A stretch of DNA of 36,658 nucleotides from Candidatus Zixiibacteriota bacterium (GTDB lineage: Bacteria > Zixibacteria > MSB-5A5 > GN15 > PGXB01), in assembly GCA_030591405.1 (NCBI GenBank), contig JAUVBC010000001.1:1-36658 (forward strand), written 5' to 3'. The notes under the pieces are model-generated. The model made no database searches, was not told where the DNA came from, and saw nothing but the letters and a program-made list of their open reading frames with translations. Both the position numbers and the translations under genes were made by a program. Below, piece after piece: positions 561-27,520 of the stretch. Within the stretch, counting starts at the first letter, position 1; every line of letters begins with the position of its first letter.

Positions 561-579
561 TATTTTAATAATATTTTTA

Positions 580-608
580 TTGATATATAGTTGTTTTTCA
601 TTTACAAT
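580..608 (+). promoter_or_regulatory. putative sigma70-type promoter for the SPFH gene
   Basis: TTGATA (580..585), a 17-nt spacer, then TACAAT (603..608), about 50 nt upstream of ATG 659. Confidence 0.4.
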
Positions 609-658
609 CTCCTTTAGAATATTAGATACTTAAGTGTTATATAATTAAAGGAGGTCGT

Positions 659-1468
659 ATGACTCGAAATCAATTAATGTTACTGCCGTTTTTGCTTATC
701 CTGATATTTGTTTCAGGAATGGCAGGATGCGGAACCCAGGTACCATCGGGCCATCGGGGAGTATTTTATTATAAGTTTGGCGATGGTACCGAAATGGGTA
801 AAATTTATGACGAAGGTTTCAATTGGCATATCCCGTGGAACAATATTTTTGTCTACAAAATTCAGCTTGATGAGCGCAGGGAAGATCTACATGTTCTTTC
901 TTCTGATGGCGCCTCAATTGGATTGGAGATGACCGTCTGGTTCCGGCCGATTTTTAACAAGCTTGATTCTTTGCAAATTACAGTGGGGCCCAACTATTAT
1001 AATGTTGCTGTGGCTCCGGCTCTTCGTGGCGTTTCCAGACAGGTGGTTGGCAAATTTAAACCGGAAGAGATTTATTCAACCAAAAGGGAAGAGATTGCCA
1101 ATGAAATTGTGCTGGAAATGCAAAATTTAATGAAGGATAAATTTATTTCGATCGAGAATATTATTATCCGCAATGTTGGCCTACCGCTAAAAATAACAGA
1201 GGCTATCAATGCCAAATTAGAAGCATCTCAAGATGCCGAAAAAATGGAATTTGTTCTTCTGAAAGAAACCCAGGAAGCTGAAAGAAAAAGGATTGAAGCC
1301 AGGGGTATTGCCGATTTTCAAAAGATCGTTTCATCCGGCTTGACTCCCTCCTTACTCACCTGGAAAGGTATTGAGGCAACGCAAAAACTGGCCGAATCCC
1401 CCAACACTAAAATAGTCGTAATCGGCAACAGCAAGGATGGCTTGCCGATTATTCTCGACTCAAAATAG
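659..1468 (+). CDS. SPFH/band-7 (prohibitin/HflC-like) domain lipoprotein
   Basis: GGAGG at 650..654, 4 nt before the ATG. N-terminal signal with a lipobox-like GMAGC. Body shows SPFH hallmarks (HVLSSDGASIGLEMTVWFRP, VAPALRGVSRQVVGKF) and an A/E/K-rich coiled tail (EAERKRIEARGIADFQK). Confidence 0.85.
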   Translation: MTRNQLMLLPFLLILIFVSGMAGCGTQVPSGHRGVFYYKFGDGTEMGKIYDEGFNWHIPWNNIFVYKIQLDERREDLHVLSSDGASIGLEMTVWFRPIFNKLDSLQITVGPNYYNVAVAPALRGVSRQVVGKFKPEEIYSTKREEIANEIVLEMQNLMKDKFISIENIIIRNVGLPLKITEAINAKLEASQDAEKMEFVLLKETQEAERKRIEARGIADFQKIVSSGLTPSLLTWKGIEATQKLAESPNTKIVVIGNSKDGLPIILDSK

Positions 1469-1489
1469 CTTACCGTATACTTTATAAAA

Positions 1490-1519
1490 GGACCGCCTGA
1501 ATAGGGCGGTCCTTTTTTT
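1490..1519 (+). terminator. rho-independent terminator
   Basis: GGACCGCC (1490..1497) pairs with GGCGGTCC (1505..1512), followed by a 7-T run (1513..1519). Confidence 0.8.
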
Positions 1520-1950
1520 CAATAATTATGTAACCTCTTGCATATTTGGCTGATAAACATGCAACTTCAGATGAGTAATTTTGAGATATTTTGGTAAAAA
1601 TGAATATGTGATTTCGATTCAATAGAAGAAGTATTATCTTTCCATAATCACGTAACGCTATGTATAATATAACGATATGTCATAAGGCATATATGCAAAT
1701 AAGGATATATTATCCTGGAAAATACTCATTTATTCTAATCTTATTTCTGTTTGCTTCATTTTGATAATAAGGCAGGGAAATTGCAGTAACTTTCTCCGAC
1801 AAACTATATTTTAGATTTGTGGGTGTTGAAATATATATGATTTTTAGAGAAAATATAGACATTAAAGGCAAGCAAAATAATTTTACCGGAGAAATCTCTA
1901 AGATAATGGTAATAAAGGGATTTCGGGGAAATTATGGCGCCAGAAATATC

Positions 1951-1980
1951 TTGACATATTCAGGTTTAAGGATATATTAT
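1951..1980 (+). promoter_or_regulatory. putative sigma70-type promoter for the giant gene
   Basis: TTGACA (1951..1956), an 18-nt spacer, then TATTAT (1975..1980). This would give a leader of about 185 nt. Weak because the region is AT-rich. Confidence 0.3.
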
Positions 1981-2167
1981 TGGTGGTTTTGTTATACTGC
2001 ATTAGTACTTACTAATTTGTTTTATGTCTCGGTTTATTCCGAGACGATTGCTTTAAAGGATGCACAGAAGATATTGGGCAGCTATAACTTGTTAGTTGGT
2101 TATGCTCTTCTCAGTACCGTACCGCCAGTACGTGAGCATCACGGTTTATTGACATACTTTTGGAGGA

Positions 2168-2245
2168 ATGATGTATAGATATAAGATCACGGTTACGGCA
2201 CTTGCCCTAACCTTTTTTCTATTGTTTTCATTAAACGTTTTTGGT
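2168..2245 (+). other. signal peptide of the giant protein (approximate)
   Basis: MMYRYKITVTALALTFFLLFSLNVFG: a basic N-region followed by a hydrophobic core. The cleavage position is a guess. Confidence 0.6.
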
Positions 2246-5200
2246 GATGTAACAAAAGATGGCGGGATATCGGTTCTGGCCGATATTACTTCCGGCCCCT
2301 TAAGGAGTTTATGCGAAGGTTGCCCAAACTATCCGCCGGAATTTGAACCGCCGACTCAGGAAAGCTTTTCAATATGCCAGGGATCAACGATTTATGATAC
2401 AATTGTTGTCACTGATATTGATGACTGGCAGACACTAAGTCTGTCTCTTTATTCTGGTCCCGGGACATTGACTTATACTCCTTCTGTTTCCCCTGCCAAT
2501 GGATATTATGAATACATGCCTGCCGAAGAAGGAACTTTTGACGTAGTTTTTGTCGCTACCGATAATGAGAGTGAGCCGGTTTATTTTACCAAAACATATG
2601 TTATCTATTTTAATCGTTCTCCAATTATTACCAATGGTGGAATGATTGAAAAAGTGGCTATAATTGGCGAAGAACTAAACTATGATGTTGATGCCACCGA
2701 TGCTGAGGATGATCCGATTGCTTTCTCCTTAATATCAGGAGATGGTTCTATTGATGCCAATACCGGAATGCTCACGTTTACTCCTGCCGATTACGGTATT
2801 TATGAATTTGAAGTGGAAGTTTCTGACTCCTGCGGGGCAGATACTTCACTGGTTACTTTTGATGTTATTCTTGGTTTTGTACTTGATTGTCCTCCATCAA
2901 GTGCGACGGAATTTATATGTCAGCCCGATACCTTATGTTATCCGATCGGTGGTATCCCTGAAGCGGCAGATGTGACCGTTGAGCCATCATCGGCGTGGTT
3001 TGATCGCGATATAAACTCAATCTGTTTTTATACTAACTGCTCGGTAATTAAAGATATAAAAGTTATTGTCAGCACGGAAAATTCAAAATGTGATGATTGT
3101 CCGCCGGTTGATCTTGACAGTTGTATGTTTACTGTTGACGTTACTTTAAATTCCATCCCGATTGTAATACTTCCGGAAGATCAGTCATTCTGGCTCTGTG
3201 ATCCGGCTGAAGTCTGCGTTCCGGTCGGTATTGATGATAATGATGATAATTTAACTGATATTACTGTCGAAGTTTCTCCCGGGGGCTATTTCGGAAATTA
3301 TAGCGATATAACCGGGATGGCTTGTTTTACGCCACCTGCTACTGGCGTTTATGAAATGATCGTTACTGCGTGGGATGAATGTGAAGCATACGATGTTGAT
3401 ACTATCAATCTCGATGTAACTATCAATACTGCGCCGACAGCCACTTGCTCATCGGTTCAGGAACTTTTAGTTTGTGATTTATCTCTGGTAACACTGAGCG
3501 GATTTGTTTGCGATGATATCGATGGCAATCTGGTTTCTTGTATGGTTGACAATGGTACCTTAAGCGGAAATGATGTTACCTTTACTCCGGTCGAAGGTGA
3601 AAATATAATAACTCTGACCGCTACTGATGAATGCGGTGAAGTTACAACTTGCCAAACAACTGTTATGGTTACTCTGAATAGTCCGCCAACCGCGGTTTGT
3701 TCGGATATTCAAGACCTTTTAGTTTGTGATTTATCACCGGTAACACTGAGTGGATTTGTTTGTGATGATATCGATGGAAATCTGGTCAACTGCGAGATCG
3801 ACAACGGAACATTAACAGATAATGATGTTACTTTCACGCCGGTAGAGGGCGAAAATGTTATTACATTAACTGCTACTGACGAATGCGGAGTTTCAACCAT
3901 TTGTCAGACAATAATAAATGTTGCTCTTAATAGAGCGCCATATGTAGCCTGCCCGCCATCCGAAGATCTGTTTGTTTGCGATCTATCTCCGATAACGATT
4001 TCCGGATTTAGTTATATTGATCCTGACGGTAATATGGTGAGTGCCGAGGTCAACAATGGCGAATTGGTTGGCGGCGATGTTACTTTTACGCCAGTTGAGG
4101 GTAGCAACAATATTACGATAACAATTACTGACGAATGCGGCGAGACTGCCAAATGTTATACAAACATTATGGTAACACTAAACAGTGCACCGACGGCGAG
4201 CTGTCCGCCTCATCAGGAGCTGTTTGTTTGCGATTTGTCTGATATTACGATAGGCGGTTTTCAGTATGAAGATATTGACGGCAATATATTTATTGCCGAA
4301 GTTGATAATGGCACTTTGAACGGAAGCGAAGTTACTTTCACCCCGGTAAACGGCGAGAATTTAATTACACTGACCGTTACCGATGAGTGCGGAGAGACTT
4401 CCACCTGTCAGGCTTCTGTAATAGTAACGCTGAACAGCCCGCCAACAGCCACTTGTCCCCAGGTCAATATTCGCGCCCTTTGTGATTTGTCACCTCATAC
4501 AATAAGTGGCTTTATATGCGATGATATTGATGATAATTTAGTTTCATGTGAAGTTGACAATGGAGCCTTAATTGGTGATGAGGTCACTTTTACACCTATC
4601 GAGGGCGAAAATATTATCACACTTACCGCTACCGATGAGTGCGGCGAAGTAACCACATGTCAAACGATATTTAATATTGTTTTAGATGTGGCGCCAACGG
4701 CGACAGTACCTGATGATCAAGAAATATTTGTTTGTGATTTATCACCAATTACTTTAGATGGATTTATATGCGAAGATCGTTATGCCAACCTTGTTTCATG
4801 CGAAGTTGACAATGGAACTCTTGAAGGCACCGAAGTTACCTTTACTCCTGTTGTTGGCGACAATACAATTACATTGACCGCCACTGATGAATGTGGTAAT
4901 ACTGCTTCCAATTCTGTTGTAATTACAGTTACTCTCAACAACGCGCCGACCGCAACCTGCCCAGGTGATCAGGAAATGTTCCTTTGTGATCTGTCAGAGA
5001 TTACGATTCCGGGATTTGTTTGCGATGATATAGATGGCAATTTAGTCTCCTGCGAAGTTAATAATGGTTCGCTGGTCGAAGATGCTGTTACCTTTATACC
5101 GGTAGCAGGTGAAAATATAATTACTCTAACCGCCACCGATGAATGCGGAGCGGTTGTTACCTGTCAAACAATAATTACAGTTATCCTGAATAGTGCGCCG

Positions 5201-8200
5201 ACGGCGACATGCCCGGGTGATTTGGAACTGTTTGTTTGCGACTTGAGCGAAATTTGTATTGACGGATTTATCTGCGATGATATTGATGCTAATTTAATAA
5301 ACTGTGACGTAACCGGTGGCTATTTTGTTGGCCAGCCGGGTCGCACAACAATATCAAAAGATGGAAGTGCCGTTTCAATTGAATCTATTTTGAATGTCAC
5401 CGAAACCAATACCGGTGATGCTACGACTCCTGTCGGTGAAACCGTTTGTTTCATTCCGGTTGAAGGCACCAATGTTATTACTTTGACCGCTACCGATGAT
5501 TGCGGATTAGAAACGACCTGTCAAACGACCGTAACAGTAACTCTTAATAATGCGCCGACTGCCTCGGTTCCGGAGCCGGATGAACTATTTGTTTGCGATT
5601 TATCCGAAATAACGATTCCGGGATTTATCTGCGATGATATCGATGGCAATCTGATCTCCTGCGAAGTTGATAACGGCAGCTTATCTGGCGATATGGTTTC
5701 ATTCATTCCAGTCCTTGGACAAAACACAATAACTTTAACCGCGACTGATGAGTGCGGCATAGTAACGACAAATCAAACAACTATTAACATAACTATGAAT
5801 GGAGCCCCAACTGTAACCTGCCCGGAAGATCTGCAGTTGCAGGTTTGCGATTTATCGCCAATAACAATCTCCGGATTCTATGTTGACGATACTAATGGCA
5901 ATCTTACGTTTGTTGGTGTGAATACCGGTGATCTGGTTGAGGATATGGTAACATTTACGCCGGTCGAAGGCGAAAATATAATCATCCTTACCGCCAGAGA
6001 TGAGTGCGGGGAAGAAGTGACTTGCCAGACAATAGTTAACGTTACCCTTAACAGCGCTCCTGTTGTTACCTGTCCGCCAACTCAGAATTTACTCGTTTGT
6101 GATCTGTCTTCAGTAACCCTTTCAGGATTTTTGTATGAAGATGTTGATGGAAACATAATTACGGCTGATGTTGATAATGGAATTCTGAGCGGCAACGATG
6201 TTACTTTTATTCCCGTTGAGGGAGAAAATATTATTACTTTGACCGTGACCGATGAATGCGGCGAAATTGTCACTTGTCAAACAACAGTTAATATAATACT
6301 AAATAATGCACCAACCGCTACAACACCTGCTAATCAAGAACTGTATCTATGTGATCTGTCACCAATAACATTAGATGGCTTTATCTGTAATGATATTGAT
6401 GGCAACCTTGCCAGTTGTGAAGTAAATAATGGAACTATTAACGGAACCGAAGTGATTTTCACTCCGGTAGTTGGAAACAATGTCATAATCCTGACCGCAA
6501 CTGATGAGTGCGGAGAAACGGCCACAAGTGAATTTTCTGTCGAGGTCGAAGTTGCTCCCACCTTTGAATTGGTTTGTCCCGGCGATGTAACCAAGTTTAT
6601 CTGCGGACCCGAAACCCTTTCATATCCGATTGGCGGAATTCCATTTGGTGCTACTGTAACAGTAACTCCTTCATCGGCATGGTTTGACGCTGAGACCAAT
6701 GAAGTAGGCTTCTATACCAACTGTTCGGTTGAAAAAGAAATTGTTGTTACGGTTGAAACCGATTGTTTTACCGAGGTGTGTCAGTTTACGTCATCGGTCA
6801 CAATGAATTCAAACCCATTAGTAGTATTATCTCCGGATGAATCTCACTTCTTATGTGAGCCGGCTGAAATATGTTTCCCGGTCGGAATAAATGATATCGA
6901 TTATAATCTGGCTGAAGTAACAATTGATGTTCAGCCATTCGATCCAAATGCTCCGGCGGCGTCATATAATGAAATCTCTGGAAAAATCTGTTTTACCCCG
7001 ACAACAACAGATAAGTATGTTGTGTATGTCACCGCAACTGATGAATGCGATTCGAGTGCGACCGATTCGATTGTTATTGATGTTGTTATCGATTCGGCTC
7101 CGACCGTTTCCTGTCCTCAGGATCAGCAATTAATGGTTTGTGATCTGTCTGATATTACAATTAGCGGATTTGTCTGCGATGATATCGATGGTAATCTGAT
7201 CTCATGCGAAGTCGACAATGGGACTCTGATCGATGGTAGTGTGATCTTTACTCCGGTTGAAGGAGAAAATCTGATCACTTTGACGGCGACCAATGAATGC
7301 GGCAAAGTCACCTCATGTCAGACAACTATTATGGTTACACTAAATAGTGCACCTGTTGTTGAATGTCCGGTCGCACAAGACTTATTTGTTTGCGATCTTT
7401 CTCCAATTACTTTGAGCGGATTCATTTATAATGATGTCGATGGCAACTTAGCATCTTATGAAGTTGATAATGGAACTCTGACCGGCAATGATGTTACATT
7501 CACGCCGGTTGTTGGTGAAAATGTTATTACAATGACGGTAACCGATGAATGCGGTGCGGTTACAGCCTGTCAGACAATTATAAATGTAACTCTTAACACG
7601 GCCCCAACCGCTACCTGTCCGACAGTTGCCGAACAGTTTGTTTGTGATCTTTCACCAATCAATGTTGCCGGATTCGTATTCGACGATATTGATGGTAATA
7701 TAGTTACCGCTGGAGTGGATAATGGAGATTTGGTTGAAGGCAGTGTGATCTTCAATCCGATTGAAGGCGAAAATACAATTACTCTTACGGTCACTGATGA
7801 GTGCGGAGAAATCGCCACCTGTCAAACCACCATTATGGTGACACTTAATACTGCACCGGCAGTTATCTGTCCTGAGAATAAGACAGTTTTTGCATGCGAT
7901 CTATCAGAATTAACAATACCTGGATTTTTCTGGAATGATAAAGATGCCAATATAGCGTCGGTTGAAGTTGATAATGGTGTCCTTATTGGAAATAATGTTA
8001 CTTTTACTCCAGTAGTTGGAGAAAATATAATAACATTTACCGTCACCGATGAATGCGGCGAAATTGCTTCATGTCAGGCAATTGTGATGGTTACATTGAA
8101 CTCGGCGCCGACAGTTATCTGCCCGACCGATGAAAATCTGTTTGTTTGTGATTTATCAGAAATAACTATCCCCGGATTTTCATGGGATGATATTGATGGC

Positions 8201-11200
8201 AATCTGATATATACCGATGTCGACAACGGTTTGCTTGTCGGACATGACGTTATATTTACTCCGGTAGTTGGCAAAAATATTATTACATTTACCGCTACCG
8301 ATGATTGCGGAGTAGCTACAAACTGTCAGACTATTATTACTGTCAATATGAACAATGCGCCAACGGCAACCTGTCCGGAAACACAGGATCTTTTTGTTTG
8401 TGATTTGTCAGATATTACTATCCCCGGATTTTCCTGGGATGATGTTGATGGCAATCTGATATATACTGAAGTGGATAATGGCAGTCTTATTGGACATGAA
8501 GTTGTCTTTACTCCGGTAATCGGTGAAAATACAATTACACTTACAGTTACTGACGAATGCGGTGAAACTGCCACCTGTCAAACAATAATCAATGTCAGCC
8601 TGAATAATCCTCCGACAGCAACTTGTGTTGCTGACCAGCAATTAGAAGTTTGCGATTTATCTCCGATTACTTTAAGAGGATTTATCTGCGATGATATCGA
8701 CGGCAATTTAATTAATTGCGAAGTTGATAACGGCGAACTGATCGAAGATGCGGTGACTTTCACTCCGGTTGAAGGTGATAACTTTATTACACTCACCGCT
8801 ACCGACGAGTGCGGCGAAAGAGTTACCTGTCAGACTTTGATTACGGTCACTCTCAACAGTGCCCCGACAGTAACCTGCCCGGGCGATCAGACATTATTTG
8901 TTTGCGATTTATCACCAATATCAATTCCGGGATTTAATTGCGATGATATTGATGGCAATCTGGTGAGTTGTGAGGTAAACAACGGAAATAAAGAGGAAGA
9001 TGTTGTTACTTTCACTCCGGTAGTTGGCGAAAATATTATTACTTTGACTGCCACCGATGAATGCGGTGAAATAACTACTTGCCAAACTATTATCATCGTT
9101 AATCTCAACAGCGCTCCTACGGCGACTTGCCCGGGAGATCAGGAACTGTTTGTTTGTGATCTTTCCGCGATTACATTAGGTGCTTTCTTCTATGATGATA
9201 TCGATGGCAATCTTGTATCGTATGATGTTGACAATGGTTTATTAAGCGGCAATGAAGTTACCTTCACACCGGTTGCAGGTGTCAACACCATTACCCTGAC
9301 CGCCACCGATGAATGCGGTGAAGTTACTACCTGTCAGACAACAATAACAGTAACCCTCAACAGTGCCCCGACAGCAACTTGTCCCGGCGATATGGAAAAA
9401 TTTGTTTGTGATTTGTCACCGATTACTTTGAGTGGTTTCTATTATGATGATATTGACGGCAATCTGGCGACTTATGAAGTTGATAATGGAATTTTAAATG
9501 GTAACGAAGTTACTTTTACGCCAATTGTCGGTGAAAATGTTATTACTTTAACAACTATTGATGAGTGCGGGGAAGAGGCTAATTGTCATGTGACGATAAC
9601 GGTTGCACTTAACAGTGTCCCGACAGCAACCTGCCCCGGCGATCAGGCACTGTTTGTATGCGACCTGTCCCCAATCACTCTTTCAGGATTTATTTGTGAT
9701 GATGTTGACGGAAATTTAGTGACCTGTGAAATTGACAACGGCACGATTGTTGATGGGACGGTAACCTTTACGCCGGTTGTTGGCGAAAATATTATTACAC
9801 TGATCGCTACTGACGAATGCGGATTGATTAATTCGTGCCAGACAATTATTTCGGTTGGCCTTAATAGTCCTCCGACCGCTTCAACTCCGGAAGATATACA
9901 GACAGTAGCCTGCGATCTGTCACCGATAACGATTGATGGATTTGTCTGTGATGATATCGATGGAAATCTTGTTTCTTGTGAAACTAATTTCGGCACTTTG
10001 AATGGAACCGAATTAACCTTTACTCCGGTTGAGGGTCTTAATACTATAATTCTTACCGCGACCGATGAGTGCGGTTTGATTGCAACATCCGAGTTTAATA
10101 TCACCGTTGAGGTCACACCCGGATTTGAGCTGACCTGCCCGCAGAGTAGCACTATCTTTATCTGCGAACCGGCTACGCTTCGTTATCCGATTGGTGGTAT
10201 CCCTGAAGGTGCAACAGTGACCGTCGTTCCGTCGTCGGCCTGGTTTGATGCCGCAACCGGTAAGGTCGGTTTCTATACCAACTGCTCGGTTGTCAGAGAT
10301 ATTGAAGTTTATGTCGAAACTGAATGTCATACTGAAGTTTGTCAGTTTACTGTTACCGCTATTATGAATTCAAGTCCGCTGGTTATATCAGTACCTGATA
10401 CGACAATGACGGTTTGTGAAAACGAATCGGCCTGTATCCCGGCTGGAATCACCGATATTGATGATAATATAATTAGTATTACTGTTACCGATAAAGCTAC
10501 CGGTGACCCGATCGGCAGCTATGATCCTATTTCCGGTGGTATCTGTTTTACACCTGAAGTTTCAGGCGAATACGAATTGATACTGGAAGCTATTGACGAG
10601 TGCGGCGCCAAAGATGCCGATACCAGCAGAATTAATGTTACCATTAACAGTGCGCCGACAGCTACCTGTCCCGGTGATATGGAACTGTTTGTTTGTGACT
10701 TATCCGCAATTACTCTTTCCGGATTTATCTGTGACGATATTGATGGTAACTTGGTGATATGCGAAGTTGATAATGGAACTTTGACTGATAACGCAGTTAC
10801 TTTTACTCCAGTCGTTGGACTTAATACAATAAAACTCACAGCAATAGATGCCTGCGATGACACAGTAACTTGTGTCAGCAATATTACTATTACTCTTAAC
10901 AGCGCGCCGACAACATCGACTCCGGATGATAAAGAGATGTTTGTTTGCGATCTGTCCGATATTACTCTTACCGGATTTATCTGCGATGATGTTGATGGCA
11001 ATTTGGTATCTTGCGAAGTCGATAATGGAACACTAAACGGCAACGATGTTACCTTTACTCCAGTTGCCGGAACCAATACAATTACTTTAACGGCGACCGA
11101 TGAGTGCGGTGAAACATCAATCAGCGAAACTATAATTACAATAACTCTTAACTCTGCGCCGACTGTTACCTGCGCAGAAAGTTATGAAATCTTTGTTTGT

Positions 11201-14200
11201 GATTTATCAGATATAACTTTGACAGGATTTAGCTGTGACGATGTTGATGGCAACTTAGTTAGCTGTGAAGTTGACAAAGGAGTCCTCACTGACGGCGAAG
11301 TAATATTCACTCCTGTTGATGGTATCAATGAGATCACATTGACAACTACTGATGAATGCGGTGCGACAACCTCTTGTGTGACTACTATAACTGTAACATT
11401 GAATAGTCCGCCGACAATAACCGCTCCTGAAAATCAGGATATAATGGTTTGTGACTTAAGCGAAATCTGCCTTGATGGATTCTCTTGCGATGATGTTGAC
11501 GACAATATTGTATCTTGTGAAATTACCGGTGCCACGCTTGAAGGAACTACCGCCTGCTTTATTCCTGTTATTGGTGAAAATATTATCAGTATGACCACAA
11601 CTGATGAATGCGGCGAGACTGCCTCACGCGATATTATCTTTAATGTGATAATGAGTCAGATTCCGGAAATTGTTGATCCCGGAAATCAATTTGAGCTACT
11701 CTGCGAGGCCGGCCCGGTTTGCACCGATATTGTTATCATCCCGCCGGAAGCAGTTGTTACCGTGACCGCTTTATTTGGCGAGGCAACAATAGAGGGTACC
11801 TTTGAAGATAATCGCGTCTGTTTTCAGGCCGATGCCGAAGGTATCTATACTGTCACGGTTTTTGCCGAGACACTATGCGGAACGGCATCGGTGACATATA
11901 CGGTTGATGTTGAATTCAATGTCGCTCCGGTTATTAATGCTGGCCCTGACTTTGAATTGTTCCAGTGCGAATTTGTTGAGTACTGCTTCATGCCCGATCT
12001 TCTGGAGGATGCCAACGATAATATAATTTCGGTTGATGTTTCTTATAACGGATTCTATAATGAAACGACCGGTGAAATATGTTTCCTTCCAACTGGAGTT
12101 GGCGAATATTGTCTTGAGATAACGGTTACCGATGATTGTCAGTTAACTGCTTCAGATATAATCTGTATCACCGTTACCAGCGGCGTGGCGGCTGTAATAG
12201 ACTGCCCGACCGGCCCAATTGATACGCTTATCTGTGATCCGGCCGAAATGTGCATTTCGCTGCCGATTACACCGGCAACAGCACAGGTTACGGTTTCTCA
12301 GGGTACTTATGATATCGCAACCGGCAAACTTTGTTTTGATGCCAATTATGCCGGAACCTATGTTATTGATGTTAATGCCGAGGATGCCTGTGGTTCAGAT
12401 TACTGCCAGGTAACGGTTAATGTATTATTTGGAGATAGCGCCAAAATTACCTGTCCTGATCTTCCGGTTTCGGCATCATTATGCGAAGCGGGAATGGTAT
12501 CGGTATTCCTCCCGATTGAACCGGATACCGCTCATGTTACAGTGAGTCCATTTGGCACTTATAATCCTGATACCGATGAATTGACTTTCCAGGCTAATGC
12601 TTCAGGTTTATACGAATTTACAGTTACGGCCGAGGCTCCTTGTCAAACGGTTGAATGCGATATTCAGGTCAATGTCGCCATTGAACAGGCACCGCAGATA
12701 ACTTGTCCTGACGATATTGAGAGAACGGTTTGTCTGCCCACAACTGACGAGATCTGTTTTCCGCTTGAGATAACCGGCTCAGCAGCCGAAGTCACCATTT
12801 CGCCGAATGGCAGCTATGTGGATGGTGTTGTTTGTATTCCGATTGACGATGCCGGAACATATCCGATTGAAATAACAGCGACTAATTTCTGTGGGACCTC
12901 TACCTGTGATGACCTGAATATAATCGTTTATGAAGATATGGCTCCAACTTTGACAGTTCCTGAAGACAGAATTATCTCATCCTGCACCGATGTGATGGAA
13001 GAGATTTGTATTGATGGTATTTACGGTTCGGATCCCGATAGCGATGAATTCACAATTCAGAAAATATCTGGCCCGGGAACATATATATCGGCCGAGGCCG
13101 ATTCCGGATCGGTATGTTTCATTCCGGAAAGCAATGATATAACATATACATTTGTAATTGAATTATTCGATGGATGTCACACCATTGTAGAATCGTTTGA
13201 TGTGACAATCTATCCATCCAACGTTTGCGAGACATGTCTTGAAGTGGCCCTTGAAACTGATACTTGCTATATCGTCGGTTCAACGGTTCCGGTACACGTC
13301 ACGGTGAATGCCATCGAAGAAATCGGCGGGTTTGATCTATTGATCTATTATGACGCTTCGGTTATGGCCTTCTTATCAATTGGACAGGGCGACGCAATAT
13401 CCGAGTGGGAGTATCTGACCTATAGCCATGAAAGTATTACATGCGGTGGCGCCTGCCCAACCGGCATGATTCGTATTATTGGTATTGCCGATCGTACCAT
13501 CCCGATGACGCATCCGCCGCAAGAGCAGTTAACACCTTCGGGAATTATGGTTACCATGAATATGCGTATATCGCGTGATTGGAATATTGGCGGACTCTTC
13601 CTGCCGATGGGATTCTATTGGTTTGACTGTGGCGATAATACTTTCTCTGATCCAACCGGTAACCTTTTATATATGGATGGTATTATATTGGATGCTTTCG
13701 GCGGTGTCGTTTGGGATGAGGCCGATGAGGATCTGTTCCCAGAGGGAAATCGTCAGTTAGGCATTGGTGCCCCGGATTCGTGTCTTGCCGGAGATAAACT
13801 AACTCCGGTTAGATGTGTGTCATTTAAAAACGGCGGTATTTGCGTTATCCATCCAGATGATATTGATGACCGCGGCGATCTCAACCTTAATGGTGTTGCT
13901 TATGAAATTGCTGATGCGGTTGTTTATACCAACTATTTTATACATGGTTTTGCCGCATTCTTGATAAATATTGATGGGCAAACAGCAGCGTCAGAAATTA
14001 ACCGTGACGGAATACCATTAACGGTTGCCGATCTGGTTTATTTGATAAGAATTCTTACCGGTGATGTTCCGCCAAGCCCGAAAGTTGCTCCTCCGGGATC
14101 GGCAGTTAAAATCATGACCCAGATTGAAAATAATAATCTATCGGTCAAGAGTGATGTTAATTATCCGACCGGCGCGGGATTACTTGTTTTCGAATACAGT

Positions 14201-14725
14201 GATGCTGTTCCGGAAATGCCTTCTCTGGGAAGTGTAGCTTCGGATATGGATATAGTTTATAATATCACCGATTCTGAAATAAGGGTTTTGATCTATAGCT
14301 TTGATCTTGATAAGAAAATTGATGTTGGTCAGGGTGATTTGCTGAATTTGAACTTTAGAGGCAACGGCTCTATTCGTCTTACCGAGACCTATTTTGCCGG
14401 CTATTACGGTGAATTGCTGAAGACGGAAATTGTGAATGGCCTGCTACCGGGCGACTTTGTTCTTTCGCAAAACTATCCTAATCCGTTTAATCCGTCAACC
14501 ACTATCAACCTGACGGTTCCAATCGCATGTGACTGGAAGATTGATATATTTAATACCGCCGGACAGGTGGTTAGAACGTATGACGGTGTGACCGAACCTG
14601 GTACCGTATCTATTGTCTGGGATGGTCTCAATTATAACAGACAAAGCGTGGCCACAGGAATATATTTCTACCGGGTTAAAGCTGCAGATTACACCGAAAC
14701 AAGAAAAATGATTCTGCTCAAGTAG
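2168..14725 (+). CDS. giant (4185 aa) secreted Cys-rich repeat surface protein/adhesin with cohesin-like, dockerin-like and T9SS-type C-terminal sorting domains
   Basis: Uninterrupted 12,558-nt ORF. GGAGG lies at 2162..2166. By analogy with the SPFH gene (GGAGG + 4 nt + ATG), the second ATG at 2171 may be the true start. Contains a signal peptide, more than 40 Cys-rich Ig-like modules and a C-terminal NYPNPFNPSTTI...GIYFYRVKA...KMILLK domain. TAG stop at 14723..14725. Confidence 0.92.
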   Translation: MMYRYKITVTALALTFFLLFSLNVFGDVTKDGGISVLADITSGPLRSLCEGCPNYPPEFEPPTQESFSICQGSTIYDTIVVTDIDDWQTLSLSLYSGPGTLTYTPSVSPANGYYEYMPAEEGTFDVVFVATDNESEPVYFTKTYVIYFNRSPIITNGGMIEKVAIIGEELNYDVDATDAEDDPIAFSLISGDGSIDANTGMLTFTPADYGIYEFEVEVSDSCGADTSLVTFDVILGFVLDCPPSSATEFICQPDTLCYPIGGIPEAADVTVEPSSAWFDRDINSICFYTNCSVIKDIKVIVSTENSKCDDCPPVDLDSCMFTVDVTLNSIPIVILPEDQSFWLCDPAEVCVPVGIDDNDDNLTDITVEVSPGGYFGNYSDITGMACFTPPATGVYEMIVTAWDECEAYDVDTINLDVTINTAPTATCSSVQELLVCDLSLVTLSGFVCDDIDGNLVSCMVDNGTLSGNDVTFTPVEGENIITLTATDECGEVTTCQTTVMVTLNSPPTAVCSDIQDLLVCDLSPVTLSGFVCDDIDGNLVNCEIDNGTLTDNDVTFTPVEGENVITLTATDECGVSTICQTIINVALNRAPYVACPPSEDLFVCDLSPITISGFSYIDPDGNMVSAEVNNGELVGGDVTFTPVEGSNNITITITDECGETAKCYTNIMVTLNSAPTASCPPHQELFVCDLSDITIGGFQYEDIDGNIFIAEVDNGTLNGSEVTFTPVNGENLITLTVTDECGETSTCQASVIVTLNSPPTATCPQVNIRALCDLSPHTISGFICDDIDDNLVSCEVDNGALIGDEVTFTPIEGENIITLTATDECGEVTTCQTIFNIVLDVAPTATVPDDQEIFVCDLSPITLDGFICEDRYANLVSCEVDNGTLEGTEVTFTPVVGDNTITLTATDECGNTASNSVVITVTLNNAPTATCPGDQEMFLCDLSEITIPGFVCDDIDGNLVSCEVNNGSLVEDAVTFIPVAGENIITLTATDECGAVVTCQTIITVILNSAPTATCPGDLELFVCDLSEICIDGFICDDIDANLINCDVTGGYFVGQPGRTTISKDGSAVSIESILNVTETNTGDATTPVGETVCFIPVEGTNVITLTATDDCGLETTCQTTVTVTLNNAPTASVPEPDELFVCDLSEITIPGFICDDIDGNLISCEVDNGSLSGDMVSFIPVLGQNTITLTATDECGIVTTNQTTINITMNGAPTVTCPEDLQLQVCDLSPITISGFYVDDTNGNLTFVGVNTGDLVEDMVTFTPVEGENIIILTARDECGEEVTCQTIVNVTLNSAPVVTCPPTQNLLVCDLSSVTLSGFLYEDVDGNIITADVDNGILSGNDVTFIPVEGENIITLTVTDECGEIVTCQTTVNIILNNAPTATTPANQELYLCDLSPITLDGFICNDIDGNLASCEVNNGTINGTEVIFTPVVGNNVIILTATDECGETATSEFSVEVEVAPTFELVCPGDVTKFICGPETLSYPIGGIPFGATVTVTPSSAWFDAETNEVGFYTNCSVEKEIVVTVETDCFTEVCQFTSSVTMNSNPLVVLSPDESHFLCEPAEICFPVGINDIDYNLAEVTIDVQPFDPNAPAASYNEISGKICFTPTTTDKYVVYVTATDECDSSATDSIVIDVVIDSAPTVSCPQDQQLMVCDLSDITISGFVCDDIDGNLISCEVDNGTLIDGSVIFTPVEGENLITLTATNECGKVTSCQTTIMVTLNSAPVVECPVAQDLFVCDLSPITLSGFIYNDVDGNLASYEVDNGTLTGNDVTFTPVVGENVITMTVTDECGAVTACQTIINVTLNTAPTATCPTVAEQFVCDLSPINVAGFVFDDIDGNIVTAGVDNGDLVEGSVIFNPIEGENTITLTVTDECGEIATCQTTIMVTLNTAPAVICPENKTVFACDLSELTIPGFFWNDKDANIASVEVDNGVLIGNNVTFTPVVGENIITFTVTDECGEIASCQAIVMVTLNSAPTVICPTDENLFVCDLSEITIPGFSWDDIDGNLIYTDVDNGLLVGHDVIFTPVVGKNIITFTATDDCGVATNCQTIITVNMNNAPTATCPETQDLFVCDLSDITIPGFSWDDVDGNLIYTEVDNGSLIGHEVVFTPVIGENTITLTVTDECGETATCQTIINVSLNNPPTATCVADQQLEVCDLSPITLRGFICDDIDGNLINCEVDNGELIEDAVTFTPVEGDNFITLTATDECGERVTCQTLITVTLNSAPTVTCPGDQTLFVCDLSPISIPGFNCDDIDGNLVSCEVNNGNKEEDVVTFTPVVGENIITLTATDECGEITTCQTIIIVNLNSAPTATCPGDQELFVCDLSAITLGAFFYDDIDGNLVSYDVDNGLLSGNEVTFTPVAGVNTITLTATDECGEVTTCQTTITVTLNSAPTATCPGDMEKFVCDLSPITLSGFYYDDIDGNLATYEVDNGILNGNEVTFTPIVGENVITLTTIDECGEEANCHVTITVALNSVPTATCPGDQALFVCDLSPITLSGFICDDVDGNLVTCEIDNGTIVDGTVTFTPVVGENIITLIATDECGLINSCQTIISVGLNSPPTASTPEDIQTVACDLSPITIDGFVCDDIDGNLVSCETNFGTLNGTELTFTPVEGLNTIILTATDECGLIATSEFNITVEVTPGFELTCPQSSTIFICEPATLRYPIGGIPEGATVTVVPSSAWFDAATGKVGFYTNCSVVRDIEVYVETECHTEVCQFTVTAIMNSSPLVISVPDTTMTVCENESACIPAGITDIDDNIISITVTDKATGDPIGSYDPISGGICFTPEVSGEYELILEAIDECGAKDADTSRINVTINSAPTATCPGDMELFVCDLSAITLSGFICDDIDGNLVICEVDNGTLTDNAVTFTPVVGLNTIKLTAIDACDDTVTCVSNITITLNSAPTTSTPDDKEMFVCDLSDITLTGFICDDVDGNLVSCEVDNGTLNGNDVTFTPVAGTNTITLTATDECGETSISETIITITLNSAPTVTCAESYEIFVCDLSDITLTGFSCDDVDGNLVSCEVDKGVLTDGEVIFTPVDGINEITLTTTDECGATTSCVTTITVTLNSPPTITAPENQDIMVCDLSEICLDGFSCDDVDDNIVSCEITGATLEGTTACFIPVIGENIISMTTTDECGETASRDIIFNVIMSQIPEIVDPGNQFELLCEAGPVCTDIVIIPPEAVVTVTALFGEATIEGTFEDNRVCFQADAEGIYTVTVFAETLCGTASVTYTVDVEFNVAPVINAGPDFELFQCEFVEYCFMPDLLEDANDNIISVDVSYNGFYNETTGEICFLPTGVGEYCLEITVTDDCQLTASDIICITVTSGVAAVIDCPTGPIDTLICDPAEMCISLPITPATAQVTVSQGTYDIATGKLCFDANYAGTYVIDVNAEDACGSDYCQVTVNVLFGDSAKITCPDLPVSASLCEAGMVSVFLPIEPDTAHVTVSPFGTYNPDTDELTFQANASGLYEFTVTAEAPCQTVECDIQVNVAIEQAPQITCPDDIERTVCLPTTDEICFPLEITGSAAEVTISPNGSYVDGVVCIPIDDAGTYPIEITATNFCGTSTCDDLNIIVYEDMAPTLTVPEDRIISSCTDVMEEICIDGIYGSDPDSDEFTIQKISGPGTYISAEADSGSVCFIPESNDITYTFVIELFDGCHTIVESFDVTIYPSNVCETCLEVALETDTCYIVGSTVPVHVTVNAIEEIGGFDLLIYYDASVMAFLSIGQGDAISEWEYLTYSHESITCGGACPTGMIRIIGIADRTIPMTHPPQEQLTPSGIMVTMNMRISRDWNIGGLFLPMGFYWFDCGDNTFSDPTGNLLYMDGIILDAFGGVVWDEADEDLFPEGNRQLGIGAPDSCLAGDKLTPVRCVSFKNGGICVIHPDDIDDRGDLNLNGVAYEIADAVVYTNYFIHGFAAFLINIDGQTAASEINRDGIPLTVADLVYLIRILTGDVPPSPKVAPPGSAVKIMTQIENNNLSVKSDVNYPTGAGLLVFEYSDAVPEMPSLGSVASDMDIVYNITDSEIRVLIYSFDLDKKIDVGQGDLLNLNFRGNGSIRLTETYFAGYYGELLKTEIVNGLLPGDFVLSQNYPNPFNPSTTINLTVPIACDWKIDIFNTAGQVVRTYDGVTEPGTVSIVWDGLNYNRQSVATGIYFYRVKAADYTETRKMILLK
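2333..2872 (+). other. two cadherin-like / He_PIG-like Ig modules (approximate bounds)
   Basis: IVVTDIDDWQTLSLSLYSGPGTLTY...FDVVFVATDN, then LNYDVDATDAEDDPIAFSLISGDGSIDANTGMLTFTPADYGIYEFEVEVSD. This is the classic 'putative Ig domain' pattern. Confidence 0.5.
2873..3430 (+). other. super-block 1 header (two Cys-rich modules)
   Basis: LDCPPSSATEFICQPDTLCYPIGGIPEAADVTVEPSSAWFD...FYTNCSV, then LCDPAEVCVPVGIDDNDDNL...CFTPPATGVYEMIVTAWDEC. Clear paralogs at 6560.. and 10121.. Confidence 0.7.
3431..6559 (+). repeat. tandem array 1: 12 copies of an 84-aa/252-nt Cys-rich Ig/HYR-like repeat
   Basis: Repeat starts verified at 3431, 3683, 3935 ... 5195. Copy 8 carries a 105-nt insertion, then starts fall at 5552, 5804, 6056 and 6308. 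Consensus: APTATCPGDQELFVCDLSPITLSGFICDDIDGNLVSCEVDNGTL.GN.VTFTPV.GENIITLTATDECGE.TTCQT.I.VTLNS. Confidence 0.9.
6560..7096 (+). other. super-block 2 header (two Cys-rich modules)
   Basis: FELVCPGDVTKFICGPETLSYPIGGIPFGATVTVTPSSAWFDAETNEVGFYTNCSV..., then LCEPAEICFPVGINDIDYNL...CFTPTTTDKYVVYVTATDEC. Paralog of 2873..3430. Confidence 0.7.
7097..10120 (+). repeat. tandem array 2: 12 copies of the 84-aa/252-nt repeat
   Basis: Starts at 7097+252k for k=0..11 (spot-checked at 7097 and 7349; the end falls exactly at 10120). No length variation. Confidence 0.9.
10121..10651 (+). other. super-block 3 header (two Cys-rich modules)
   Basis: GFELTCPQSSTIFICEPATLRYPIGGIPEGATVTVVPSSAWFDAATGKVGFYTNCSV..., then VCENESACIPAGITDIDDNI...CFTPEVSGEYELILEAIDEC. 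Confidence 0.7.
10652..11659 (+). repeat. tandem array 3: 4 copies of the 84-aa/252-nt repeat
   Basis: Starts verified at 10652, 10904, 11156 and 11408. Confidence 0.9.
11660..13237 (+). other. six divergent Cys-rich Ig-like modules (about 80-95 aa each)
   Basis: A recurrent pattern, e.g. ITCPD..LC....C..LPI.P..A.VTVSP.G.Y....CF.A...G.Y...V.A...C....C...VNV. It resembles the header modules rather than the 84-aa repeat. Confidence 0.6.
13238..13700 (+). other. cohesin-like module (approximate bounds)
   Basis: LEVALETDTCYIVGSTVPVHVTVNAIEEIGGFDLLIYYDASVMAFLSIGQGDAISEWEYLTY. This resembles the cohesin family signature (a hydrophobic strand, G.F, then .YD...L.F). Confidence 0.55.
13868..14065 (+). 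other. dockerin-like module (two EF-hand-like segments)
   Basis: DRGDLNLNGVAYEIADAVVYTNYFIHG ... EINRDGIPLTVADLVYLIRILTGD. These are duplicated D/N-x-D/N-x-(D/N)G loops, each followed by a helix, as in dockerins. Confidence 0.55.
14462..14722 (+). other. T9SS type-A C-terminal sorting domain / FlgD-Ig-like domain
   Basis: LSQNYPNPFNPSTTINL...IFNTAGQVVRTY...VWDGLNYNRQSVATGIYFYRVKA...KMILLK. This matches the Por_Secre_tail (TIGR04183) pattern. Confidence 0.8.
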
Positions 14726-14788
14726 ATCTTCTGCAAAGAAGAGATACTTCTGGGCAGATCAACTATAGCAGCCCTATAGAAAAAGAGA

Positions 14789-14820
14789 GTCGGTCAATTC
14801 AATTGGCCGACTTTTATTTT
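14789..14820. terminator. bidirectional rho-independent terminator between convergent genes
   Basis: GTCGGTCAA / TTGGCCGAC form a 9-bp stem with one G-U pair and a 5-nt loop. An A-rich run lies upstream and TTTTATTTT downstream. It sits between the giant gene and rlmH. Confidence 0.7.
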
Positions 14821-15290
14821 TACTTGTGATATTTACTGCCGGATAATATTGAAAAGCCGCGATATAGCTGCTCTAATAGTACCGGCCTGATAATTTGATG
14901 AGACATCGTCATAGGGGAGAGGGATATTATTTCGTGACACGATTTCAAAAATGATTTATCGAGGCCATAAATGCCGCCTATAATAAAGTCGCAGGAACCA
15001 AAACAGTTGTTTGGTAATGTCGATAAACATTTTGAAAATTGTATTGAATTGTAAGGTTTTCCAGAATCGGAAAGAGCGATTTGGTATCGAGATTTTAGTC
15101 TTGGTTTTATTAAATCTGCCTCAAGTGCACTAAGTTCTAACTCGGATAGATTTTTGGAAAGTTTTTTGCCGGGAATAAAATCGAAGGTAAGGACGGTATA
15201 CTTTTGCAGTAGTTTGCTATAATGAGATATAGCTTCATCAACCCATTGGTCTTTATTCTTTCCAATTGAGATTATATTAATTTTTAGCAT
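14820..15290 (-). CDS. rlmH: 23S rRNA (pseudouridine1915-N3)-methyltransferase RlmH (SPOUT family)
   Basis: MLKINIISIGKNK...ISLSPMTMSHQIIRPVLLEQLYRGFSILSGSKYHK is the typical RlmH length and C-terminus. ATG at 15290 overlaps the yjbQ TGA (TGATG). The ORF-track TTG at 15293 is an alternative start. Confidence 0.85.
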   Translation of the reverse strand: MLKINIISIGKNKDQWVDEAISHYSKLLQKYTVLTFDFIPGKKLSKNLSELELSALEADLIKPRLKSRYQIALSDSGKPYNSIQFSKCLSTLPNNCFGSCDFIIGGIYGLDKSFLKSCHEIISLSPMTMSHQIIRPVLLEQLYRGFSILSGSKYHK

Positions 15291-15688
15291 CAATCTGCTA
15301 CTATTTTCAGATATAAGCGTCGATTGCGAGGTCCGTCAAATTCGCAAAAAAGAATTCCCTGCCAGGTTCCCAAAAGTAGTTTCGAATCTGAGACAATTAG
15401 CTGCAGGGTCGGGCCAAAAAGTGATGATTTTATATGCGCATCAGAATTGCCTTCGCCATGATAATAATTATCTTGCTGTGGAATTTCTTTGTTGAGTTTA
15501 TACAGTATATCACGTTTTACATCCGGATCGGCATTTTCATTAATAGTAATAGCTGCTGTTGTATGCGGGACATGAAGATGAACAATTCCATTGCTTATAT
15601 TTTCTGATGCGATTTCTTCTCTTATTAGATGCGTGATATCTATTAATTCTTCGCGTTGGTTTGTCTGTATTTTGAGTTCTTTAAGCAT
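15290..15688 (-). CDS. yjbQ: YjbQ/UPF0047 family protein (secondary thiamine-phosphate synthase-like)
   Basis: VHLHVPHTTAAITINENADPDVKRD...GNSDAHIKSSLFGPTLQLIV...LLLGTWQGILFCEFDGPRNRRLYLKI. The likely start is the ATG at 15688 (MLKELKIQT), embedded in the ftsY end (AATGCTTAA). The ORF-track extension to 15796 overlaps ftsY and is probably not translated. Confidence 0.8.
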   Translation of the reverse strand: MLKELKIQTNQREELIDITHLIREEIASENISNGIVHLHVPHTTAAITINENADPDVKRDILYKLNKEIPQQDNYYHGEGNSDAHIKSSLFGPTLQLIVSDSKLLLGTWQGILFCEFDGPRNRRLYLKIVAD

Positions 15689-16598: not shown

Positions 16599-16619
16599 AT
16601 TGTCAGTCCTGATAATTAT

Positions 16620-27196: not shown

Positions 27197-27520
27197 ATGA
27201 GTAAGCCGATCGAAGTAACAGACGATAGTTTTGAACAGGAAGTTTTAAAATCAGAAACACCGGTGGTGGTCGATTTCTGGGCGCCCTGGTGTGGCCCGTG
27301 CAAAATGATTGCCCCGATTTTGGAAGAGATCGCCGAAGAATACGATGGTAAGATAAAAATTGCCAAAGTTGACGTTGACACTCATTCAAAGATTGCCGGA
27401 CAGTATAAAGTGATGTCTATCCCGGCGCTGTTCTTTTTCAAGAATGGCGAGTTGGTGGATCAGGTAATTGGAGCTTTACCAAAAGCGCAATTAGTAGATA
27501 AAGTATCAAAAATACTATAG
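27197..27520 (+). CDS. trxA: thioredoxin
   Basis: AGGAGA RBS 6 nt upstream. VVVDFWAPWCGPCKMIAPILEE is the canonical WCGPC active site. 107 aa. Confidence 0.95.
   Translation: MSKPIEVTDDSFEQEVLKSETPVVVDFWAPWCGPCKMIAPILEEIAEEYDGKIKIAKVDVDTHSKIAGQYKVMSIPALFFFKNGELVDQVIGALPKAQLVDKVSKIL

Follow-up and report, generated by a model that had tools for sequence, protein, structure and literature searches.

A giant, putatively type IX-sorted protein with a two-level array of cysteine-rich Ig-like modules in Candidatus Zixiibacteriota

Gene and repeat layout

The window analysed in this study is the whole of a 36,658-nucleotide (nt) stretch of DNA from Candidatus Zixiibacteriota bacterium (GenBank assembly GCA_030591405.1, contig JAUVBC010000001.1, positions 1 to 36,658 of the forward strand). 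It contains a single open reading frame (ORF) of 12,558 nt with an ATG start, encoding 4185 amino acids (aa), whose predicted product is a giant surface protein sorted by a secretion system of type IX (T9SS). The middle of the protein consists of runs of a cysteine-rich, immunoglobulin (Ig)-like module, here called R, set between two-module headers (Ha and Hb), and most likely neighbouring modules are joined by disulfides. The features of the gene, with the evidence for each in brackets, are listed below; CTD stands for C-terminal domain, HMM for hidden Markov model and AF2 for AlphaFold2, and related loci and proteins are given by their L and P numbers.

2168..14725, + strand: whole gene, giant T9SS cargo and putative surface fibre, 4185 aa (ORF; collinear orthologues L002 and L001)
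2168..2245, + strand: predicted Sec signal peptide, aa 1-26, MMYRYKITVTALALTFFLLFSLNVFG/D (read from the translation)
2246..2872, + strand: N-terminal Ig-like tip modules N1 and N2 (PKD, PKD_4 and Big_9 matches at aa 163-233; Cys census)
2873..3430, + strand: header H1, made of Ha1 (aa 236-330) and Hb1 (aa 331-421) (alignment, HMMs)
3431..6559, + strand: run A, 12 R modules of 84 aa (phase, HMMs, repeat search; orthologues)
5321..5425, + strand: 35-aa in-frame insertion within unit A08 (best-fit placement; orthologues)
6560..7096, + strand: header H2, Ha2 and Hb2 (alignment, HMMs; orthologous to H2 of L001, 100% bootstrap)
7097..10120, + strand: run B, 12 R modules (phase, HMMs, repeat search)
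10121..10651, + strand: header H3, Ha3 and Hb3 (alignment, HMMs, repeat search)
10652..11659, + strand: run C, 4 R modules (phase, HMMs)
11660..13192, + strand: six Ha/Hb-like Ig modules, aa 3165-3675, the first two a degenerate fourth header (HMM matches, Cys pattern)
13238..13846, + strand: domain of cohesin fold, aa ~3691-3893, with a 3-Cys linker before it (Pfam, AF2, Foldseek)
13865..14071, + strand: dockerin-like segment with two DxNxDG...D loops and a helix after each (alignment, AF2)
14102..14434, + strand: beta-sandwich that separates the dockerin-like segment from the CTD (strands in 300-410 of the cassette, AF2 model)
14474..14725, + strand: predicted T9SS type A C-terminal sorting domain (TIGR04183, PF18962, FlgD_ig)

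Translation confirmed the three runs of 12, 12 and 4 in-phase 84-aa units (28 in total) that the initial annotation, made from the sequence alone, had described. The units start at 3431+252k (12), 7097+252k (12) and 10652+252k (4), all in codon phase. An independent repeat search returned spacings of 252 nt, 357 nt (that is, 252+105), and 1041 and 1035 nt across the headers, as well as super-unit periods of 3684 and 3561 nt. The lone 105-nt insertion was found as described, adding 35 aa in frame to unit A08 (5195..5551). The headers, previously given as three two-module segments of about 180 aa, are 186, 179 and 177 aa long and 52-54% identical to each other at the aa level, and HMMs built from the window's own parts resolve each of them into one Ha and one Hb module; Ha1 alone holds an insert of about 10 aa with a Cys. 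The same models relate Hb distantly to the R module (E ~1e-8) and match six further Ha/Hb-like modules downstream of run C. The two-level repeat architecture is thus borne out by both the HMMs and the repeat search, and the tip, the super-units and the six Ha/Hb-like modules make up about 42 consecutive Ig-like modules in total. Mean identity between units is 62% at the nt and 59% at the aa level; that Tandem Repeats Finder reports only one stretch above threshold in the array reflects its strong divergence.

Two modules do precede the first header, and the cadherin-like character ascribed to them was not recovered: aa 163-233 score with PKD, PKD_4 and Big_9, the module at aa 178-233 just reaching the PF00801 threshold (23.5 against 23.5 bits), and for the preceding module Pfam gives nothing significant.

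The T9SS tag proposed at the outset was supported by TIGR04183 (36.6 bits against a cut-off of 23), FlgD_ig (35.8 bits on the C-terminal segment) and PF18962 (29.6 bits against 27 on the same segment; 26.6 in the whole-protein scan), so that by the sequence of its CTD the protein is a predicted T9SS type A cargo. The signal peptide, read by eye, has a basic N-terminus and a 20-residue hydrophobic stretch, followed by VFG/D. Many other Zixibacteria proteins are annotated by NCBI as T9SS type A cargo. In Bacteroidota, PorU cuts type A CTDs and the new C-terminus is joined to anionic lipopolysaccharide (PMC10202324); by analogy, the C-terminal part of the present protein would be membrane-proximal and its N-terminus distal.

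The R module and its cysteines

The unit had been described as a Cys-rich HYR/Ig-like form that matched no recognised one, and profile searches agree: it is Ig-like and related to HYR and PKD, and every R unit stays below the Pfam gathering scores. The best PKD_4 score of a single unit is 19.4 bits against 27 (25.1 for two units together) and the best HYR (PF02494) score 20.5 against 21.7; five of the 28 units match PKD at E<0.1, five likewise match HYR, and there are weak matches to Big_9 and K319L-like PKD. Compared with the PDB, the 28-unit profile found PKD chains of collagenases and a protease at marginal significance (E 0.0035-0.02). An AF2 model of a di-module, computed from an alignment of the window's own di-repeats, is all-beta with nine strands per module and a confidence (pLDDT) of 96, and its Foldseek neighbours are tandem domains of stalks, namely the cadherin-like modules of SraP, CbhA, the Aeromonas RTX (repeats-in-toxin) adhesin (6xi1), Rib, titin and cadherin-23. 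As modelled, the R module is an Ig-like beta-sandwich of ~85 aa.

By score, R is a divergent PKD/HYR-like Ig module outside Pfam PKD and HYR. With PKD (PF00801/PF18911, for example in ColG/ColH) and HYR it shares the ~85-aa beta-sandwich and the marginal profile matches; its motif D.DGN..S[CY]EVDNG...TFTP..G...ITLT.TD..G resembles the PKD consensus, and its Cys6-Cys74 corresponds to the conserved Cys pair of HYR. It differs from them in staying below every gathering score and in having two to four extra Cys pairs, including a predicted junction-bridging one. Binding of Ca2+ by the DDIDGN loop or the linkers is a conjecture.

Among 1.84 billion proteins, the R profile matched 2158 representatives at E<=1e-3 and 113 at E<=1e-30, which makes the family real but small. 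A first homologue search gave 10 proteins, and the five with a source name come from Zixibacteria or from metagenome-assembled genomes (MAGs) of the Fibrobacteres-Chlorobi-Bacteroidetes (FCB) group. Weak matches to the profile also occur at loci L020-L041 of Saprospiraceae and other Bacteroidota, in giant proteins of up to >5,900 aa that are themselves built on long-period super-repeats, such as those of ~685 aa (L023) and ~320 aa (L033 and L034).

Three Cys pairs of the module can be read from joint loss or gain in the window. Six units have lost both Cys6 and Cys74 (Fisher p = 2.7e-6), 11 have lost both Cys27 and Cys37 (p = 4.7e-8), and two have gained Cys21 along with Cys50 (p = 0.0026); family-wide tables agree with these three intramodule pairs. 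Cys15 and Cys68 are invariant in all 28 units, so that the window itself is silent on their partners.

These partners were sought in a family set of 1886 R-type modules from 329 proteins, aligned to the R HMM, with 830 adjacent module pairs from 157 proteins in the inter-module test. When Cys15 of one module is compared with Cys68 of the next, both are present in 796 pairs and both absent in 32, and only two pairs have the second Cys alone and none the first alone. Agreement is far weaker within the same module (both 1223, neither 57, only Cys68 56, only Cys15 29) and between Cys15 and the Cys68 of the preceding module (both 795, neither 39, only the second 46, only the first 26). After removal of pairs >80% identical, 708 were left, with both cysteines in 695, neither in 11 and discordance in 2, and with no pair in which Cys15 is present and the next Cys68 absent.

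The ends of the module chains show the same pattern. Cys15 occurs without Cys68 in 29 modules, about 20 of which visibly open the series of R-type modules behind an N-terminal region that is not repetitive, and four follow a module lacking Cys15. At the other end, the last module before the cohesin lacks Cys15 in 26 of 40 cases, 22 of them followed by a linker with one Cys; where Cys15 is kept, the linker holds two or three Cys (11 of 14). The number of cysteines is odd in 44 of the 46 modules with one of the two residues and even in 647 of the 680 with both. In the AF2 model, with secondary structure assigned by DSSP, the two residues occupy opposite ends of the sandwich: Cys15 comes after strand A' (A'-B loop), at its C-terminal end, and Cys68 belongs to the F-G turn, at its N-terminal end, so that contact within a module is not expected and contact across a junction is feasible. 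In the protein of the window, N1 has a Cys15-like residue and no Cys68, N2 has Cys68 and no Cys15, Ha1, which directly follows N2, is alone in having the extra Cys in its 10-aa insert, and the last module keeps Cys15 and is followed by the three-Cys linker. Taken together, covariation and model indicate that a disulfide between Cys15 of module i and Cys68 of module i+1 most likely braces nearly every junction. Pairing of Cys15 with Cys68 inside one module, which had been the first assumption, was dropped in view of the covariation between neighbours, the modules at chain ends and the parity of the Cys counts.

Orthologues and history of the array

A scan of a genome collection revealed two loci collinear with the window, upstream genes included: L002, a Candidatus Zixiibacteriota MAG (window positions 1-6447, 85.8% nt identity), and L001 (positions 2-8112, 75%). 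Both have the N-terminus, an Ha-Hb header and 12 R units, the eighth interrupted by an insertion of 35 aa; L002 ends at a contig edge inside unit 12 (11 units and a cut twelfth), and L001 extends past run A into Ha-Hb and four R units. The insertion has the same length and position in all three and is identical to that of the window at 33 of 35 residues in L002 and 14 of 35 in L001, and P0134 is a further partial orthologue with an equal layout, including the insertion in unit 8. Units of the window are 74-96% identical (aa) to those at the same position in L002; the correspondence mostly holds in L001 too, and in the unit tree clades of equal position across orthologues have bootstrap values of 74-100% for most positions. 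Units A03, A04 and B04 have been replaced between the window and L001, the count remaining 12. Compared with L002, the window gives a dN/dS ratio of 0.13 overall, and no unit exceeds 0.31; the gene is under purifying selection. Values of dS against L002 form a mosaic, with 0.06-0.15 in A05-A06 (4439-4942) as opposed to 0.4-1.5 in the other units; this low-dS tract suggests recent recombination between lineages.

A collapsed, expanded or chimeric assembly might produce such an array, and most database relatives are indeed fragments on short contigs, while an exact-sequence look-up found no record of the same protein elsewhere. Yet no 25-mer occurs twice within the gene, whose longest exact repeat measures 24 nt, and the units are only ~62% identical; run A is reproduced unit by unit in L001, L002 and P0134, and the ORF is intact and under purifying selection. 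An assembly artefact is therefore extremely unlikely, and was rejected on the lack of a repeated 25-mer and the unit-by-unit match in orthologues.

The gene is surrounded by housekeeping genes (Band-7, RlmH, UPF0047, FtsY, SMC, RodZ, Maf, Dtd and thioredoxin). Giant genes with rlmH-UPF0047-ftsY(-smc) downstream were found at L013-L019 of other Zixibacteria, where these loci reach far enough, and Band-7 also lies upstream in L015, L017, L018 and L019 (the window span compared was 659-20291). Their products are 27-46% identical to that of the window in the N-terminus and 41-49% in the C-terminal ~500 aa, and these common termini, together with the common flanking genes, identify the genes as positional orthologues. 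The middles of the orthologues differ, consisting of heterogeneous Ha/Hb-like modules (~1,500 to >3,450 aa). Complete orthologues outside the clade of the window have two strong Ha modules, mostly in Ha-Hb pairs, or four in L050 and L051, whereas members of the clade have three headers. R runs between headers occur only in this clade (window, L001, L002, L048 and P0134); single R runs of 9-19 copies were found in L003, L008, L009 and L010, and in P0131 an R run follows a different N-terminal domain (VWA). In the header tree, H1 groups with the first header of clade members (100%), and the second header of L042 is the one that H2 and H3 join, with weak support (29-46%). A metagenome scan with H3 alone gave no match; one with the header alignment did.

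The distance from one Ha to the next clusters at 1150-1230 aa, or ~14 modules: it is 1229 and 1187 in the window and of like size in L001, L015, L017, L019 and L042, the intervening modules being of unrelated types. A conserved, ruler-like spacing was dropped as a firm claim, given that distances of 867, 1350, 1574 and 1591 aa also occur in other orthologues.

How the two runs of 12 arose is answered in part by comparing their units. The initial annotation had suggested that a header and its 12 units were duplicated en bloc; co-duplication was recovered for the last unit and the header following it, and the pairing that the suggestion would call for in units 1-11 is absent. A12 and B12 are each other's best match (65% nt, 68% aa), and a neighbour-joining unit tree unites them at 94% bootstrap; H2 and H3 are connected by a 194-nt repeat (73% identity, spacing 3561 nt). 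The three headers of the clade, against two or four in complete relatives, and the header tree also count in favour of a block duplication. The degenerate form said to mark the last unit of both runs is present in A12 and B12 as regards ATSEF...EVEV; the loss of Cys6/Cys74 is not peculiar to them, being found also in A06, A09, C02 and C04. Between units 1-11 of runs A and B there is no position-wise pairing (double-centred permutation, p = 0.24 for nt and 0.07 for aa), the positional permutation being significant only because of unit 12, and Cys classes do not match by position either (p = 0.15 with unit 12, 0.37 without). A repeat-unit tree pairing the first run with the second had been expected under block duplication; the bootstrapped neighbour-joining tree contains no such clades of equal position except for unit 12.

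Synonymous sites between units are saturated, with a mean proportion of synonymous differences (pS) of 0.73, and all duplications within the array are ancient, none of them recent. B05 and B06, singled out earlier as the most similar pair, do rank first of 378 pairs at the nt level (75%), with the lowest pS (0.53); at the aa level their 69% is exceeded by the 79% of A07 and B08. The continuing duplication or gene conversion read from this pair did not hold up, as the two units differ at 25% of nt and their pS is above the mean of 0.39 between the window and L002, its closest orthologue. Copy number and order of the array are kept across three to four genomes, which, with the purifying selection, leaves ongoing duplication unsupported.

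The layout fits the formula N-terminus + H1 + (R12 H2) + (R12 H3) + R4 + tail, and duplication of a whole 12-unit run as a block is plausible. The replacement of A03, A04 and B04 at a constant count of 12 means that a positional signal can be erased with no change of copy number. A probable sequence of events is that in the clade of the window an R-module array replaced the heterogeneous modules seen in other Zixibacteria orthologues, that a block of one run and the header following it was then duplicated in tandem long ago, and that copy number and order would afterwards have been fixed by purifying selection, with occasional replacement of single units.

Larger blocks are repeated in two relatives. 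P0131 contains a 401-aa block repeated at 95% identity (aa 1279-1679 and again +687 aa), and L015 has 300 nt at 92% identity with a spacing of 3567 nt (10754-11053 and 14321-14620). This means that the family undergoes duplication or conversion of blocks, unless the assemblies concerned are themselves affected by it.

C-terminal cassette and proposed function

The last 506 aa (13193-14725) form a cassette found in 4257 proteins at E<=1e-5; the named matches nearly all belong to Zixibacteria, and among the proteins are many short ones, of only ~860-885 aa, whose N-terminal parts are unrelated. An AF2 model based on a 51-sequence alignment (pLDDT 85) resolved four parts, namely the cohesin fold, the dockerin-like segment, an Ig-type beta-sandwich and the type A CTD. 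Pfam Cohesin (PF00963) scores 24.8-26.6 bits against 24.1, over profile positions 11-56 only, and in Foldseek the modelled domain resembles the type I cohesins 1aoh, 5nrm and 4uyp with target-normalised TM scores of 0.75-0.79 and a root-mean-square deviation of 2.3 Å (5nrm), so that the model confirms the cohesin fold. The dockerin-like segment, which is three-helix with helices seen in the AF2 model, has D225/N227/D237 and N266/D268/G269/D276 invariant in the alignment and carries the acidic residue at loop position 13, not 12; the Pfam dockerin models did not match the window sequence. As the cassette adjoins the anchor and is common to thousands of cargo proteins, it would serve in assembly or retention rather than as a scaffoldin, which suggests a general assembly/retention or surface-display module of Zixibacteria. 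No description of this cohesin/dockerin-like/CTD cassette was found in the literature.

These data are best read, with a probability of about 0.62 for the reading as a whole, as those of a T9SS surface fibre with bridged junctions and an ancient block duplication. Sec would export the product, the type IX system would sort it, and its C-terminus would most likely anchor it on the surface of the Zixibacteria cell. From the distal end it would comprise two tip modules, three super-units (Ha-Hb with 12, 12 and 4 R modules), the six Ha/Hb-like modules and the ~500-aa cassette. Facultative disulfides (Cys6-Cys74, Cys27-Cys37 and Cys21-Cys50) would form inside modules and Cys15-Cys68 disulfides between them, so that nearly all junctions from the tip to the cohesin would be covalently braced, giving a stiff rod resistant to proteases and force. 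At ~4 nm per module the rod would measure 150-200 nm and keep the N-terminal modules clear of the outer membrane. Anchoring through the CTD, this length and the rigidity given by disulfides are, we infer, probable properties of the protein. Of the features of fibrillar adhesins, a long tandem-repeat stalk (~42 Ig-like modules) and a predicted CTD anchor are present. Pfam scans found no known ligand-binding domain at the distal end, only two N-terminal Ig/PKD-like modules, so that a role as an adhesin or spacer is putative.

That no such tip domain was identified weighs against the proposed reading, as do several further points. Genes of the T9SS machinery (SprA/Sov, PorU, PorV etc.) are absent from the 36.7-kb window, and no papers were found on Zixibacteria with T9SS, type IX secretion or dockerin. 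Dockerin_1 (PF00404) matches the family consensus alone and below threshold (14.7 bits against 22.9, E 0.035), and units 1-11 fail to support duplication of the whole run. The disulfide map is based on covariation, parity and topology; many of the compared modules are related to each other, so that the Fisher values overstate independence, and the informative boundary cases number in tens. Finally, in the window clade each Ha module has an odd Cys for which the disulfide scheme provides no partner. Candidates for it are Cys1519 (Ha2, 6560-6811) and Cys2706 (Ha3, 10121-10372), in the motif FYTNC, with Ha1 at 2873-3157; distant orthologues have SDCC at this site and an even count. The odd Cys could be a free thiol or be paired differently.

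Other explanations concern the stalk and its origin. In a plain string of beads, Cys15 and Cys68 would be paired within their module or reduced, and a peptide linker alone would join the modules. With both residues in all 28 units, the window alone cannot discriminate, and intradomain disulfides are usual in cross-linked adhesins such as that of Mobiluncus (PMC10619420). Such a stalk is nevertheless improbable in view of the much weaker covariation within modules than between neighbours, the first modules without Cys68 and last ones often without Cys15, the odd Cys counts of one-Cys modules and the location of the two residues at opposite ends of the sandwich. As to origin, each run may have grown unit by unit through tandem duplication or unequal crossing-over, with the last unit and header alone being copied and the equal count of 12 due to coincidence or selection on length. 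This course of events would explain why units 1-11 are unpaired by position, Cys classes unmatched, clades of equal position missing and the pair of highest nt identity (B05-B06) adjacent. It leaves aside that both runs have exactly 12 units, that the super-units have a period of 3561 nt, or 3579 nt from H1 to H2 after subtraction of the insertion, that unit replacement relative to L001 at a constant 12 could have erased the signal, and that P0131 and L015 contain high-identity multi-module blocks; independent growth is possible, though block duplication is preferred.

With regard to function, a cellulosome-like scaffold would recruit dockerin-bearing enzymes or dock to cohesin proteins, the Ig stalk being a mere spacer. 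The confirmed cohesin fold and the dockerin-like loops, invariant across the family, would suit it, and this is how Cloacimonadota proteins that have cohesin/dockerin modules and a T9SS CTD were interpreted (PMC8542988). It is unlikely here, as each protein has one cohesin and one dockerin-like segment, both next to the anchor and off the stalk, the occurrence of the cassette on thousands of proteins with unrelated N-termini fits general anchoring or assembly better, and profile scans of the protein detected no catalytic or carbohydrate-binding domains (CAZyme or carbohydrate-binding module, CBM). More speculative, and quite unlikely, is a stalk that forms the periodic block of a surface lattice with covalent and non-covalent cross-links, a titin-like ruler network built by T9SS on a Gram-negative cell. 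The Ha-Hb landmarks would then recur every ~14 modules (~50-55 nm), surviving wholesale replacement of the modules between them, unpaired Ha cysteines could form disulfides from fibre to fibre, and the anchor-proximal cohesin and dockerin-like modules could daisy-chain the fibre bases.

The proposed fibre shares with the giant T9SS adhesins of Bacteroidota, SprB and RemA, a Sec signal, a T9SS CTD and thousands of residues of tandem beta-sandwich forming a surface filament. SprB of Flavobacterium johnsoniae has a type B CTD and SprB repeats and acts in gliding motility; the protein studied here has a type A CTD, a different, Cys-rich module and a cohesin/dockerin-like cassette, belongs to another phylum, and no link of its gene to motility was found. 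Tandem runs of Ig-like domains that project a tip and have stiffened junctions are likewise present in the extenders of RTX adhesins (MpIBP, Aeromonas 6xi1, SiiE and LapA), stiffened by Ca2+ (PMC7493085, PMC5550230). Those adhesins use the type I secretion system, Ca2+ linkers and often near-identical repeats, in contrast to T9SS, ~60% identical repeats and predicted junction disulfides here. Gram-positive stalks (Mobiluncus mulieris adhesin, Cpe0147 and Spy0128) are also covalently reinforced Ig-like chains (PMC10619420), through isopeptide, ester, thioester or disulfide bonds within a domain, whereas the pair predicted here lies between neighbouring domains. The Cloacimonadota proteins combine cohesins and dockerins with a T9SS CTD in an FCB-group bacterium as well (PMC8542988), as multi-cohesin scaffoldins and dockerin enzymes, unlike the one cohesin and one dockerin-like segment found here near the anchor. 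The A-band of titin likewise repeats a higher-order unit, of 7 or 11 modules compared with ~14 Ig-type modules here; evidence for a partner of matching periodicity was not found for the present protein, and its spacing varies among orthologues.

A two-level repeat therefore has a precedent in titin, and relatives show forms of their own, with repeated Ha-Hb landmarks and block repeats. No description was found of the R-module family, of a junction-bridging disulfide or of the syntenic module turnover. Repeat adhesins of giant size are common, but few chemistries for stiffening a stalk are known: RTX adhesins use Ca2+-loaded linkers, and Gram-positive bacteria use isopeptide or ester bonds inside a domain. 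A chain of module-to-module disulfides, if true, would be a third way to stiffen giant adhesin stalks. The syntenic locus, with its modules turned over and its layout kept, is a useful case for the evolution of repeat proteins. No major concept is changed, and the organism is uncultured.

Some minor observations concern the locus and its neighbourhood. L048, a short contig from the clade of the window, contains a closed 641-aa ORF (1222-3147) with the N-terminus, Ha, Hb and about two R units, which may represent a truncated paralogue, a pseudogene or the outcome of a frameshift. The window also encodes a thioredoxin (27197-27520) and a DsbD-type transmembrane protein (29995-30732), which may have a role in oxidative folding of the 212-Cys protein or be ordinary housekeeping genes. 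A 119-aa ORF (1819-2178) shares 11 nt with the start of the giant gene; it has no Pfam match, is kept in L002 (93% aa) and L001 (70% aa), and may be co-transcribed with the giant gene.

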